Below, piece by piece: positions 1,550 to 20,226 of a stretch of 64,000 bases of DNA. The position numbers and the translations under genes are program-made. The DNA comes from Escherichia coli (GTDB lineage Bacteria; Pseudomonadota; Gammaproteobacteria; Enterobacterales; Enterobacteriaceae). Numbering within the stretch: the stretch's first letter is position 1; each line of letters begins with the position of its first letter. The stretch lies in NCBI RefSeq assembly GCF_030013205.1, contig NZ_CP122648.1. One strand, 5' to 3'. The notes under the pieces were generated by a model. The model had not been told where the DNA came from. It did no database searches and saw only the letters and a program-made list of their open reading frames with translations.

Positions 1550-4500
1550 CTATCCCCAATCCAGTCCTTGTGGCGAACTTGAAAATCCCGCCTCACGCAG
1601 CAGCGTAAACATCGGCGTTTGCCGGACCGGTAGGTCATTCACTTCTGTTAGCGTAAAGCGCAGCCGTGGTTCGCGACGCAGTGCGGTAGTCAGCGCGTGG
1701 AAAATCTCTGGGGCGAGTAATTCCTCTTTTTCCTGCCAGACCAGCATTTTTTTGCCACCTTGCGCCAGATAGAGTAACAATTTGCCGCCAGAAACGACCA
1801 CCAGCGCACCCGCCCGACGCGTTGGTATCAGCGTTGCCGGATGTGCAGGCCAGGGCAGAAGATTTCCCCATGCATTAGCCGGATCGTTGGCGGAGAGCGC
1901 CACTGGTGTATAGTGGCGCGTTTGCGCGGTTTGTGTCGCCAGATCGCGCAATCGGTCAATAGTCAGACGTTCAGCGAATTGCGCGCCACCCAGACCTTCT
2001 ACAAAACGACCTCGCATAATTCGCCCGGAGTCTTCCATACTTCGACAAAGCGTTTGCATCGATGGAAACCCGCCAGGGATATTTTCGGCTATCACCGCCT
2101 GACGACTGATGATGCCGTAGCGGTCGAGCATATTTTCCGCCAGCGCCAGCATCCTTTCGGTATCGTTTAGTGGCTCCACCTGCAATAACGACCAGCGTCC
2201 AGCCAGATTTGGTGTGTTGTAAGACACCCGCGGCGAGACGGGTTGTGCATAGACAGGACGCCCACGACGAGCCCGGTGACTGCGGCGAGTTGAGGTGCGT
2301 GCGTTGGAACTGCTGCGGGTGAGGGCGCGTAACGGTGCCCAAATATCGCTGGTGATGACGACTTGCCAGACCAGCGCCCATAACGCCTCTTGCAGTGCCG
2401 AGGGATCAACCGATTCGCCGATTTTATCGCGTATCCGTTGGCTGATTTGTTGTGCAAACCAGGCTCCTCCGTCAGCCAGAACCGTGACTATCGCTTGCTG
2501 CAGTGCCGAACGATTCGCCTGATTCGCTTCGGCGGGAGTGAACGATTCTGCAGCATATTCCTGTAGATGCAGTGCCACCAGGCCGTCATCTTCACCCAGT
2601 TTTTTTGCCCCGACCAGATAACCGCACCGGTTGCCAGTAATTCATCGAGCATTTCTGGCGAATAGTCGCGTACGCGGGCAGGCAGGATCTGGCTTTCCCA
2701 GAGTGAGGCGGGTAAACCGACTCCGGCAAGCTGTTCGATCACCCGCATGACGCCATCCACGCCCTCATAAACGCCTGGCGATGTTGAGGCAAAGAGTGCC
2801 GGGCTACCATCGGTGGCGGGTAATACGCCCTGACGTTCCAGCAGCAATCGCGCATAGGTCGTGGCCGCAACGGGACGTGTCGCTTCTCTGGCGGCTTGCA
2901 GCGAGCGCAAACGCAGACGACGAAATACTTCATCGCTCACCCAGATGTCTTGTTGCAGATTCATCACCAGCCCCTGTTCGCGCAGTTGCTGAAGTTGCTC
3001 TTCGACAATGGCAATACCGAGACTAAACTCATGAGCCAGTTGTTCAGACGTGACCAGAGCATGAGCCCGGAGATAGCGCAGAAAGAGGTCGCGAAGCGGG
3101 TAACTGACTCGGTGCAAATAAATCTCTGGCAGTGACTCTGGTAGTCGTACGCCGAGAGCATCGCGCAGCCTGGCGGCATCATCCATACAGGCAAGACGCT
3201 CCTGCCCGCTAATCATGGTCGGGAAGATTCGTTTTACTGCAAGAAGATTTTCCAGATACGACGCAATCTCTTCACTGCTGCCTGTATGTCGTTGCGCCAG
3301 GTCTTCAACGGTCATTGGCCCCAGTTCGCGCAGCAGGTCGAACAATCCTTCTTCACCTTTCGCTCTTCTGCCAGGAGCCAGTCGTTGCAACTCTTCTTCC
3401 ACCTGGCGAATGACCTGTGGGTCGAGTAATTCCCCCGGATCGACCTGTCCGAGTAGATTGCGCAGTAACTCGCTGTCCAGCGACAGTACGGATGCCCGGC
3501 GCTCTGCCAGCGGGGCGTCGCTCTGGTACATAAATTCCGCGACATAGCCGAACAATAAACTGGCGGCGAAAGGCGAGGGCGTAGTGGTCGTTACATCGGA
3601 TATTTGAATTTCGCCACCGTTCAGGCGACGCATCAAACGTTCCAGCGCGGGAAGATCATAAACATCTTGCAGACATTCGCGTAGGGTTTCGAGAATGACC
3701 GGAAAATCCGGATATCCCTGAGCGATTTCCAGCAACTGACTGGCGCGCAGCCGTTGTTGCCAGAGCGGGGTGCGATGGCCCGGCGTGCGGCCCGGCATTA
3801 ATAATGCCCGCGCGGCGCATTCGCGAAAACGGGCGGCGAAAAGTGCCGAGCTGCCTACCGCCTCGCGGACAATTTGCAGCAACTTTTCTGGTTCAAACAA
3901 AAAAATCGCGGCATCAGGCAATTTACCATCGGTGTCAGGAATGCGCGCAACAATGCCGTCATCACTGGCTACCACAGACGCGTCAGCGCCCCATAGTGCA
4001 TGTATTCGCCCGGCAATCGCCAGCGCCCAGGGTTCATGCACCCGTCTTCCATAGGGAGAGTGCAAAATAATACGCCAGTCACCAATTTCATCACGGCACC
4101 GTTCGAGGACCAGATGACGACTACCTGGAACGATGCCCGTCGCGTTGCGCTGCTCGTCAATCAACCCCTGAATATTGGCGATCGTATTTTCTTCTGCCAA
4201 CCACGGGGGAATAGTCCCGGAAAAGAACGCGCCATCCGCCAGTAAATGGAGAAAATCGCCGATCATCTCGCCTAATTCTGCCGGACGTCCGTTACCTTCA
4301 CCACGCCAGAAGGGAAGGCGGGCAGAACGACCTGGAGCAGGAGTCACAATCACCTGATCGCGGGTGATTTGCTGGATCCGCCATGAGGTAGCGCCGAGAG
4401 TGATAATGTCGTTCACCCGCGACTCATATACCATCTCCTCATCCAGTTCACCCACCCGCCGCGAACCGGCCTGTTCTTCACCTTCGGGTAATAACACGCT

Positions 4501-6165
4501 ATACATGCCACGATCCGGAATGGTGCCACCGCTGGTAACCGCCAACAGCTGAGCGCCAGGTCGGGCGGTCAATATCCCGGTCTCCCTGTTCCAGACCAGT
4601 TTTGGTCGAAAAGCAGAAAAATCGCCAGAGGGATAGCGCCCGGAAAGCATATCCAGCGTGGCGTCAAAAACACGTCTTGGCAGATCTTTCCACGGTGCGG
4701 CACGGCGTACGCGGGAGTACCATTCGTCTGCCTGTAATGCATCCATCGCCGCGGCGGCAACGGTTTGCTGCGCAAGGACGTCGAGTGGATTATGCGGTGG
4801 TGTCAGGTTTTCCAGCCTGCCTGCGAACATACACTCAACAATGACTGCGGAATCGACTAAATCACGCCTGGTTCGGGGGAAAAAAAGCCCTTTGGAGATA
4901 CCACCTACCTGGTGTCCGGCACGTCCAATGCGTTGTAACCCACTGGCAACAGAAAGCGGCGTTGCCACCTGAATCACCAGATCCACCGCGCCCATATCAA
5001 TCCCCAGTTCGAGACTGGAGGTTGCGACCACACAGCGTAATTCACCCGATTTCAGCGCCTGTTCGGTGATTGCTCGTTGTTCTTTAGAGACGGAGCCGTG
5101 GTGTGAGCGGGCAATAAAAATGTCGCTACTTTGTATACGGTTAGAGGTTGCGCCGGAGGTCGACTCGAAATGGACCGCATCAACGGCGATAGACGGGGAA
5201 CGCTGTAAGCGTGCGGCGTAAAGTTCATTCAATCGTGCCGTCAGTTTTTCCGCCAGCCCGCGTGAATTAGTAAAGACAATGGTCGAGCGATGGCGCAAAA
5301 CTTCATCAAGGATACCCGTTTCAATATATGGCCAGATGGAGCCTTCTCGGCCGGCATGGCTGTCTTCGCCGGTGCCGCTGGCGACCGATGAGACATCATC
5401 CATATTGGCGACCGGTACGACAATCCGTATCTGCGGATGGCGCATTGCGGGCGGGTTTACTACCGTAACCGGGCGATCGCCACCAAGAAATGCTGCAACA
5501 TCGCTGGCTGAGCGTACAGTGGCAGAAAGGCCAATTCGCTGTGCTGAGGTGTGGAGCAGCGCATCGAGCCGCTCCAGACTTAACGCCAGATGCGCACCAC
5601 GTTTACTGCCCGCTACCGCGTGGACTTCATCAATAATTACCGTTTCGACGCCGCGTAGCGTTTCGCGCGCGCGGGAGGTCAGCATCAGATAGAGTGATTC
5701 GGGTGTGGTGATCAGAATATCCGGCGGATTACGGGTGAGTTTGCTGCGTTCCTGTGCAGGCGTATCGCCAGTACGGATCCCCACGCGAAGATTGACTTCC
5801 GTTTCGCCGCGCCGCCGCCGTTCATCGGCAATACCCTGTAACGGGATCTGCAAGTTGCGCTGAACGTCGGTGCCCAGAGCTTTGATCGGTGAAATATAGA
5901 GGATGCGTGAGGTTTTACGTTTATGCGCCTCGCGGGTATCTTCGCCGCCTTCGCGGAAGAGCTGATCGAGGGCGTAGAGAAATGCTGCCAGCGTTTTCCC
6001 GGAGCCAGTCGGTGCAATCACCAGCGCATGTTCGCCTCGCGCCGCCACATGCCAGGTTTGCGACTGGACAGCGGTCGGCTGTTTAAAGGCGCGAAGAAAC
6101 CAGTCGCGGGTTGCCGGTGAAAACACGTCCGGCAGGGGCGATGAAAGGTTTGGATTATCTGCCAT
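1550..6165 (-). pseudogene. lhr: Lhr large ATP-dependent SF2 helicase, interrupted by a -1 frameshift (ORFs 2488..6165 and 1550..2578)
   Basis: 1225-aa ORF has helicase motifs (APTGSGKT, DEVH) and a 342-aa ORF continues the Lhr C-terminal region in another frame; frames meet at the T7 run at ~2600..2606. Confidence 0.85.
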
Positions 6166-6257
6166 TAACGCTATTCCCCGTGAATATCATGCATGATGCG
6201 TGGAATAGCCTCACTATAGATGCCTGAATCATTGCATGTCATCAGGCATCGACTCGA

Positions 6258-19321: not shown

Positions 19322-19352
19322 GGGGAGTGAGAAATCACTCCCCTTGGTTTTT
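19322..19352 (+). terminator. Rho-independent terminator/attenuator hairpin between tyrS and pdxY
   Basis: ggggagtga-gaaa-tcactcccc followed by ttggttttt. Confidence 0.6.
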
Positions 19353-19363
19353 ATACAGGGAAC

Positions 19364-20226
19364 ATGATGAAAAATATTCTCGCTATCCAGTCTCACGTTG
19401 TTTATGGTCATGCGGGTAACAGTGCGGCAGAGTTTCCGATGCGCCGCCTGGGCGCGAACGTCTGGCCGCTGAACACCGTTCAATTTTCTAATCACACCCA
19501 ATACGGCAAATGGACTGGCTGCGTGATGCCGCCCAGCCATTTAACCGAAATTGTGCAAGGCATTGCCGCCATTGATAAATTACACACCTGTGATGCCGTA
19601 TTAAGTGGCTATCTGGGTTCGGCGGAGCAGGGGGAACATATTCTCGGTATCGTTCGTCAGGTGAAAGCAGCAAATCCGCAGGCGAAATATTTTGCGATCC
19701 GGTAATGGGTCATCCGGAAAAAGGCTGTATCGTTGCACCGGGTGTCGCAGAGTTTCATGTGCGTCACGGTTTGCCTGCCAGCGATATCATTGCGCCGAAT
19801 CTGGTTGAGCTGGAGATACTCTGTGAGCATCCGGTAAATAACGTCGAAGAAGCGGTTCTGGCAGCGCGCGAACTCATTGCGCAAGGGCCACAAATTGTGT
19901 TGGTTAAACACCTGGCGCGGGCTGGCTACAGCCGTGACCGTTTTGAAATGCTGCTGGTTACCGCCGATGAAGCCTGGCATATCAGCCGTCCGCTGGTGGA
20001 TTTTGGTATGCGCCAGCCGGTAGGTGTTGGTGATGTGACGAGCGGTTTACTGCTGGTGAAACTGCTTCAGGGGGCAACGCTGCAGGAGGCCCTGGAACAT
20101 GTGACCGCTGCAGTATACGAAATCATGGTGACCACCAAAGCAATGCAGGAATATGAGCTGCAAGTGGTTGCTGCTCAGGATCGTATTGCCAAACCAGAAC
20201 ATTATTTCAGCGCAACAAAGCTCTGA
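19364..20226 (+). pseudogene. pdxY: pyridoxal kinase PdxY, interrupted by a -1 frameshift (ORFs 19364..19705 and 19705..20226)
   Basis: 113-aa and 173-aa ORFs together match PdxY; frames meet at the T4 run at ~19690..19693. Confidence 0.85.

Follow-up and report, generated by a model that had tools for sequence, protein, structure and literature searches.

Two homopolymer frameshifts in one Escherichia coli chromosomal window have separate origins: a deletion inherited by the O139:H1 ST1 clone and a probable long-read miscall

The window analysed here is a 64-kb stretch of an Escherichia coli chromosome, and its features of interest are listed in Table 1. Among 5,426 complete E. coli genomes, its nearest neighbours are 17 genomes of the O139:H1 ST1 edema-disease clone, whose hosts are pig or wild boar and whose countries are Belgium, France, Japan, and Korea. 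One of these, ETEC4079, equals the window over the whole 64 kb with the exception of one indel, located in a mononucleotide run of lhr, and one SNP. The junction of an IS1 insertion, searched as a 91-mer, has an exact match in only 1 of the 5,426 genomes, and this is ETEC4079. The insertion is thus present only in the window and ETEC4079, which marks the latter as the closest relative of the window. The SNP is a nonsynonymous A:T to T:A transversion in rsxC and is the only difference private to the window besides the lhr run; the window therefore comes from a separate isolate that has itself diverged to some extent. Across six clone genomes from the four countries, 18 SNP sites were found in the approximately 50 kb compared.

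Table 1. Positions of the disrupted genes and other distinguishing features in the window
Feature	Position	Strand	Description
lhr	1550..6165	-	Large helicase-related protein, reads as a frameshifted pseudogene here; ORFs 6165 to 2488 (1225 aa) and 2578 to 1550
Mononucleotide run in lhr	2600..2606	-	T7 on the + strand, A7 in the lhr sense; T8 in all 17 complete clone genomes
pdxY	19367..20226	+	Pyridoxal kinase 2, frameshifted pseudogene; product cut to 112/113 aa, most of the ribokinase-like fold gone
Mononucleotide run in pdxY	19690..19693	+	T4; T5 in other E. coli; O139:H1 ST1 clone marker
Private SNP in rsxC	27762	-	+ strand A in the window, T in all others; CAG to CTG at codon 159, Q159L
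IS1 copy	30701..31467	-	Inserted between blr and ydgJ, with a 9-bp target duplication on either side

Two genes in the 64 kb are broken, lhr and pdxY, and no others. The initial annotation had likewise found just these two of about 60 genes to be broken, in agreement with the record of ETEC4079, which over the same stretch holds approximately 62 CDS and flags pdxY as the sole pseudogene. It had also described both disruptions as -1 homopolymer indels (A8 to A7 in lhr and T5 to T4 in pdxY), and this is borne out: putting back one T at the lhr run restores a full-length protein of 1538 aa, and one T at the pdxY run restores 287 aa. The positions then given, 2596 and 19696, were 3-4 bases off each run. 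As it stands, the lhr product departs from the intact sequence at residue 1189 and reaches a stop 37 residues on; the intact lhr of ETEC4079 is 4617 bp long and encodes WP_063086027.1. According to Pfam domain assignments, the helicase core of Lhr (residues 29-867) lies upstream of the frameshift, the break falls inside WH3_Lhr (1130-1206), and WH4_Lhr is lost. The pdxY product diverges at approximately residue 110. Neither the 1225-aa Lhr product nor the RsxC Q159L variant was found among recorded proteins. Of all coding homopolymers in the window, the ancestral A8 run of lhr is the longest. Only 2.4% of the bases of the window are in runs of at least 5, and under uniform placement the probability that both deletions would fall in such runs is approximately 6e-4. 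The placement of the two deletions in runs is not due to chance and fits slippage of either a polymerase or a basecaller.

A single cause had been assumed for both lesions. Their alleles are, however, distributed in completely different ways, pdxY T4 being clone-wide (17/17) and lhr A7 private to this assembly, and a common cause or single mechanism is thereby ruled out. For pdxY, an 80-mer with the T4 run matches exactly in 17 of the 5,426 complete genomes, all of them O139:H1 ST1 and together the same set as the nearest neighbours of the window. The same exact 80-mer search found T4 in none of approximately 5,084 other genomes that have the region. PGAP flags pdxY as 'frameshifted' in ETEC4079, K_EC180, P15-25, EC556, and ETEC1701. 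The T4 sequences come from independent laboratories and technologies (nanopore in Belgium, PacBio with Illumina in France, and genomes from Japan and Korea). P15-25 and W13-16, which are Unicycler hybrids of PacBio and Illumina data typed as O139:H1 ST1 (PMC8798679), are short-read-supported clone members and both have T4. Additionally, an identical truncated pdxY product is called in GCA_002133905.1, an NCBI draft assembly, as well as in a metagenome contig from JGI. A systematic, context-driven nanopore error at this T-run was considered and is ruled out, as the nanopore pipeline that produced ETEC4079 calls T5 in five strains outside the clone whose flanks are identical. The T4 allele of pdxY is therefore not an artefact; it is a genuine mutation that all members of the O139:H1 ST1 clone have inherited.

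One event of ordinary replication slippage, in an ancestor from which the porcine O139:H1 ST1 edema-disease clone descends, would have produced this single-base deletion, which would then have been handed down vertically. E. coli can do without pdxY because it possesses pdxK and makes pyridoxal phosphate de novo, and the loss could therefore have been fixed by drift. Spontaneous slippage in a repair-proficient cell, subsequently fixed in a clone, is an option that the initial annotation did not consider, and it fits pdxY.

The lhr allele behaves differently. In an exact-match search, T7 was found in 0 of the 17 clone genomes; ETEC4079 has T8, as does P15-25 (PacBio and Illumina) when read directly, and W13-16 is not among the exact T7 matches. 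An 81-mer with T7 occurs in 18 of 4,351 genomes, which belong to unrelated lineages. Four of these 18 carriers come from the project that produced ETEC4079 (odds ratio at least 13, p at most 5e-4), in which R9.4.1 reads were processed with Bonito, Trycycler, and medaka without short-read polishing (PMC10151945). The same project contains frameshifts in essential genes. For instance, ribE, which served as the nanopore control for essential genes at neighbouring loci, has A6 shortened to A5 in 3 of 5,411 genomes, all three from this project, and tyrS has A5 lengthened to A6. The tyrS copy of the window was dropped as an essential-gene control; its longest run is 5, which makes it an unfit comparison for A8.

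Comparisons among closely related assemblies point in the same direction. Over 50 kb, the clonal pair ETEC1732 and ETEC1734, also from this project, shows no SNPs and 2 indels, one being T8/T7 at lhr and the other an intergenic A9/A8. In ETEC1701, of the same clone and pipeline as ETEC4079, three further private -1 deletions lie in runs of 6-7 within 50 kb. Besides pdxY, 6 of 6 indels in the clone are private -1 homopolymer deletions, none of which is in the Illumina-supported P15-25. Similarly, six of eight inspected T7 carriers have further frameshifted genes at most 20 kb to either side. The relatedness of the window to ETEC4079 suggests that it stems from the same nanopore-only pipeline or a similar one. 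The supplement of that project lists ETEC_4077 and ETEC_4078F with virulence and resistance profiles identical to that of ETEC_4079; both are outside the RefSeq set. We regard the A8 to A7 change in lhr, private to this assembly, as most likely an assembly artefact, namely a homopolymer-length miscall probably left over in a long-read-only (nanopore R9.4.1) assembly, with the DNA of the organism unchanged. The earlier suggestion of a homopolymer artefact thus probably holds for lhr; it fails for pdxY, where T4 is also seen in hybrid assemblies, a draft, and a metagenome.

Overall, we assign a probability of approximately 0.72 to the reading that the two frameshifts are separate in origin, with pdxY an inherited clonal deletion, lhr a probable long-read miscall, and no mutator involved. 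The alternative that survives best, although it is unlikely, accepts the inherited pdxY deletion and holds that the lhr frameshift is real as well, as a recent spontaneous slippage in a mismatch-repair-proficient cell that was tolerated because lhr is non-essential. The length of the A8 run speaks for it, given that slippage rate grows with run length (PMC5854121), and so does the private rsxC SNP, as a sign that the window has diverged somewhat from ETEC4079. Elsewhere in the window, the runs of 7 as well as the A9 run match ETEC4079 and P15-25, and only 1 of 284 runs of at least 5 differs between the window and ETEC4079 in the 64 kb. The lhr run is therefore the sole homopolymer discrepancy in this stretch, and the assembly of the window is not generally error-ridden. 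Moreover, two T7 carriers, 730V1 and ETEC1749, are free of other frameshifts within 40 kb. Against this, no other clone member has the change, T7 calls are at least 13-fold over-represented in a nanopore-only project whose assemblies also contain broken essential genes, and SNP-free clonal twins disagree at precisely this run. Judged from published rates, it would also be improbable in a repair-proficient cell that one particular 8-base run mutated while 64 kb gained only one SNP.

Some of the T7 alleles in other genomes may nonetheless be real; an A8 tract as such is a genuine slippage hot spot, lhr is dispensable, and the regions around lhr in 730V1 and ETEC1749 are clean. It is improbable that the lhr tract is a genuine recurrent hot spot among natural isolates and that the allele in the window is one such event. 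A small fraction of natural E. coli isolates (up to 18 of 4,351 complete genomes, and the window) would then have an Lhr in which the helicase core is retained and the C-terminal winged-helix region is missing from residue 1189 onwards.

A mismatch-repair-deficient mutator state of the isolate or of its lineage, with both -1 homopolymer deletions as its signature, was the second cause proposed in the initial annotation and is very improbable. Both lesions are of the type favoured by repair loss, which, as summarised in a Vibrio study, shifts the mutational spectrum to single-base homopolymer indels at a rate that climbs with run length (PMC5854121). However, pdxY T4 is ancestral to the entire clone and thus predates the isolate. 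Inspection of mutS, mutL, mutH, and uvrD for lesions, as had been proposed, was made in the sibling ETEC4079, and all four of its copies are intact (full-length, unflagged, and with widely shared protein accessions). Transitions dominate the substitution spectra of repair-deficient cells (PMC5854121), whereas the 18 SNP sites of the clone comprise 11 transitions and 7 transversions in approximately 50 kb, and the private SNP of the window is itself a transversion. So few SNP sites among six genomes from four countries mean that there is no hypermutation, and a single transversion and a single indel are all that separate the window from its sibling in 64 kb. The mutator reading therefore finds no support. 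Least probable of all, and already contradicted, is that both frameshifts are sequencing artefacts: 11 of the 17 pdxY-T4 genomes do belong to the nanopore-only project, but T4 also appears in the PacBio and Illumina hybrids, in the Japanese and Korean genomes, in the NCBI draft, and in the metagenome contig, the same pipeline yields T5 in non-clone strains with identical flanks, and T4 tracks the clone exactly, unlike random error.

The lesson is mainly one of data quality, in that look-alike frameshifts in one window may differ in cause, and population and clone context can tell which is an inherited pseudogene and which an assembly error, with no need for reads. Even essential genes (ribE and tyrS) are frameshifted in long-read-only RefSeq 'complete' E. 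coli genomes; therefore, the 'frameshifted' counts of such records should not be taken as biology or as a mutator signature. The O139:H1 ST1 edema-disease clone has a clean single-site marker in pdxY T4, and this fixed loss of pdxY could be used to diagnose the clone specifically.

Compared with known systems, the two lesions resemble MutS/MutL-deficient natural E. coli mutators only in the kind of lesion, the loss of one base from a mononucleotide run. Unlike in such mutators, the repair genes of the sibling are whole, transitions are not in excess, divergence is not raised, and the pdxY lesion is older than the isolate. The lhr run also differs from the phase-variable contingency loci of Neisseria, Haemophilus, and Campylobacter, in that most of its variant calls are in error-prone assemblies; to our knowledge, Lhr has no role in which switching would help, and we know of no E. 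coli A8 tract that acts as a switch. The lhr lesion is closer to what is seen in nanopore R9.4.1-only medaka assemblies, being a single-base deletion in the longest run that is private to one assembly, missing from short-read-supported clone genomes, and sporadic in unrelated long-read assemblies. The window, whose link to this pipeline is suggested by its relatedness, falls towards the clean end of its output, with 1 discrepancy in 64 kb compared with 3 in 50 kb for ETEC1701. The pdxY lesion, in turn, is like the drift-fixed, clone-specific pseudogenes of host-restricted E. coli pathovars: a single lesion in a dispensable salvage gene that is both clone-wide and exclusive to the clone.

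The window covers a chromosomal segment of E. coli that runs from mepH, grxD, lhr, rnt and gloA to tyrS, pdxY, gstA and the rsx operon, continues with mal, uid, fumAC, tus and pntAB, and ends at ydgD. Two of its genes, lhr and pdxY, are split by single-base deletions (see table), and addition of one T at each site again yields full-length proteins, Lhr of 1538 aa and PdxY of 287 aa. The Lhr frameshift falls at residue 1189, within the third winged-helix domain, and spares the helicase core (residues 29-867); after the PdxY frameshift, at approximately residue 110, most of the kinase fold is lost. 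ETEC4079, the nearest relative, differs from the window at just two positions across 64,000 bases, and the sole pseudogene flag over this stretch in its record is pdxY. This comparison, together with the ETEC4079 annotation, confirms the initial annotation of two broken genes among about 60, each with a -1 change in a homopolymer. Under uniform placement, the chance of both deletions falling in runs of at least 5 bases is p ~6e-4, but location in runs is expected from any slippage process.

Coordinates of the disrupted genes and of other features discussed in the text (window or window-equivalent positions)
Feature	Position	Strand	Description
lhr	6165→1550	-	split: 1225-aa ORF and downstream ORF
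lhr run	2600-2606		T7 on + strand, A7 in gene sense
lhr, ETEC1701	4880		A7 to A6
pdxY	19367-20226	+	split: ORFs of 113 and 173 aa
pdxY, K_EC180	19630		G5 to G4
pdxY run	19690-19693	+	T4
gstA-dtpA run	20926-20934		A9, intergenic
rsxD run	25837-25843		G7
rsxD, ETEC1701	25837		G7 to G6
rsxD, ETEC1701	25994		A6 to A5
rsxC repeat	26160-26584		imperfect tandem repeat
rsxC SNP	27762	+	A in window, T in every other genome
IS1	~30701-31467		between blr and ydgJ
uidC, K_EC180	43656		G4 to G3

The pdxY frameshift is a real mutation of single origin that is inherited throughout the porcine O139:H1 ST1 edema-disease clone, because its distribution coincides exactly with the clone, it is present in hybrid assemblies, its product recurs in draft and metagenomic sequences, and T5 is called correctly elsewhere. 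An exact 80-base query centred on T4 matched 17 of 5,426 complete E. coli genomes, while approximately 5,084 other genomes with the pdxY region differ from the query, typically by one T more. All 17 carriers were isolated from pigs or wild boar, and they make up exactly the set of the window's nearest neighbours: ETEC1701, 1748, 4067-4071, 4075, 4079, 6333 and 6334 (Belgium), P15-25 and W13-16 (France), EC556, EC571 and EC581 (Japan), and K_EC180 (Korea). PGAP labels pdxY as 'frameshifted' in every carrier record inspected. Both French genomes are of type O139:H1 ST1 and are Unicycler assemblies that combine PacBio RSII and Illumina reads (PMC8798679). The 113-aa truncated PdxY is also found in the NCBI draft GCA_002133905.1 and in one JGI metagenome contig, and the nanopore pipeline of the Belgian genomes correctly called T5 in five non-clone strains with identical flanks. 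The T4 allele is a clean marker of the clone. The metagenome contig (Ga0563729_08896, 2.7 kb, from 3300076231) carries pdxH-tyrS-pdxY with the clone's 113-aa PdxY, which suggests that the clone is detectable in that sample.

Within the clone, the window is distinguished by an IS1 copy with a 9-bp target duplication. Its exact junction occurs in one of 5,426 genomes, ETEC4079, and therefore the window is a sibling of that genome; the insertion is absent from K_EC180, P15-25, EC556 and ETEC1701 and is a handy sub-clone marker. ETEC4079 belongs to PRJNA917806 (Vereecke et al. 2023, PMC10151945), for which 94 isolates were assembled with Bonito, Trycycler and medaka solely from nanopore R9.4.1 data, without short-read polishing. 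According to its supplement, ETEC_4077 (chromosome 5,190,196 bp) and ETEC_4078F have the virulence and resistance profile of ETEC_4079 (PMC10151945). Neither is among the RefSeq complete genomes, and we infer that the window may originate from such a sibling assembly; look-ups of exact protein products (the 1225-aa Lhr and RsxC Q159L) retrieved no source record. Two differences are private to the window: the lhr run and a nonsynonymous SNP (rsxC Q159L). The SNP could be a genuine private mutation or a substitution error; the surrounding 81-mer has zero exact matches in 5,426 genomes. Off-diagonal BLAST self-matches also reveal an internal repeat in rsxC, with an offset of ~96-98 bp and ~88% identity over 327 bp.

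The A7 call in lhr is most likely a sequencing or assembly artefact (probability about 0.75), because the indel pattern fits long-read run-length noise. An exact 81-base query centred on T7 matched 18 of 4,351 genomes, comprising bovine, human, pig and food isolates of many lineages; none is a member of the O139:H1 clone, and T8 is present in all clone members inspected. Four of the 18 belong to PRJNA917806 (odds ratio at least 13, p at most 5e-4, with all 94 project isolates as denominator), and two T7 genomes, ETEC1734 and ETEC1738, are 1.8% divergent from each other, which illustrates the spread over lineages. Additional frameshifts are present in such genomes. For instance, ETEC1734 has a ribE deletion (A6 to A5) that occurs in 3 of 5,411 genomes, every one from this project (ETEC1734, ETEC1732 and ETEC1702), and ribE is essential. 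Similarly, ETEC1706 has an insertion in the essential gene tyrS (A5 to A6) and a second lhr deletion (G5 to G4), and ETEC1738 has a frameshift in ydhV. Over 50 kb, the clonal pair ETEC1732 and ETEC1734 has 0 SNPs and 2 indels, located in the two longest runs present: lhr (T8/T7) and the gstA-dtpA intergenic run (A9/A8). The latter is the longest homopolymer of the window, and has the same length in the window and its relatives. Among T7 carriers outside the project, NCTC9040, OkiPb01695 and OkiPb01713 have 3, 2 and 1 extra frameshifted genes, respectively, within 20 kb on each side. The T7 carriers 730V1 and ETEC1749 have none in that range.

Besides pdxY T4, the only indel common by descent in the clone, approximately 50 kb contained six clone indels (one in the window, two in K_EC180 and three in ETEC1701). 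All are private -1 changes in homopolymers, and the Illumina-supported P15-25 has none of the six. ETEC1701, a clone member from the PRJNA917806 pipeline, retains lhr T8, and its annotation marks lhr as frameshifted and rsxD as frameshifted twice. The rsxD G7 run is G6 in ETEC1732, ETEC1734 and ETEC1701, which represent separate lineages but one pipeline, and is apparently a second position at which miscalls recur. K_EC180 has no private SNPs in the 50 kb; its two G-run deletions, of which that in uidC is labelled 'frameshifted' by PGAP, are likely assembly errors in its record.

A real and recent slippage event in lhr would be consistent with the lack of any other run-length discrepancy in the 64 kb of the window, with the A8 tract being a genuine slippage hot spot, and with lhr being dispensable; set against the run-length pattern among the long-read assemblies, we consider it unlikely. 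The suggestion of a mismatch-repair-deficient lineage, with a private repair-gene lesion in this isolate, is highly improbable: spectra of repair-deficient strains, as described in a Vibrio mutation study citing E. coli work (PMC5854121), consist mostly of transitions and single-base homopolymer indels, but pdxY, one of the two lesions to be explained, is older than the isolate, mutS, mutL, mutH and uvrD (outside the window, and examined in ETEC4079) are full-length, unflagged and have common protein accessions, six clone genomes from four countries have 11 transitions and 7 transversions at 18 SNP sites in ~50 kb, and the one private SNP of the window is an A:T to T:A transversion. Nothing in this analysis demands a repair-gene lesion.

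Sequencing artefact, initially proposed as one of two explanations for both genes, is therefore the most likely explanation for lhr and does not apply to pdxY. The proposed check by short-read polishing in effect has its answer in the Illumina-supported clone genomes, where pdxY is still broken and lhr is intact. More generally, a 'frameshifted' label in a RefSeq genome assembled from long reads alone often does not reflect biology, even where the gene is essential, and frameshifts such as those in ribE and tyrS are a hazard for pseudogene counts based on such RefSeq 'complete' records. Both phenomena are ordinary: pdxY, a dispensable salvage gene, has become a pseudogene specific to one clone, and the lhr call is most likely a leftover homopolymer miscall in a long-read assembly.
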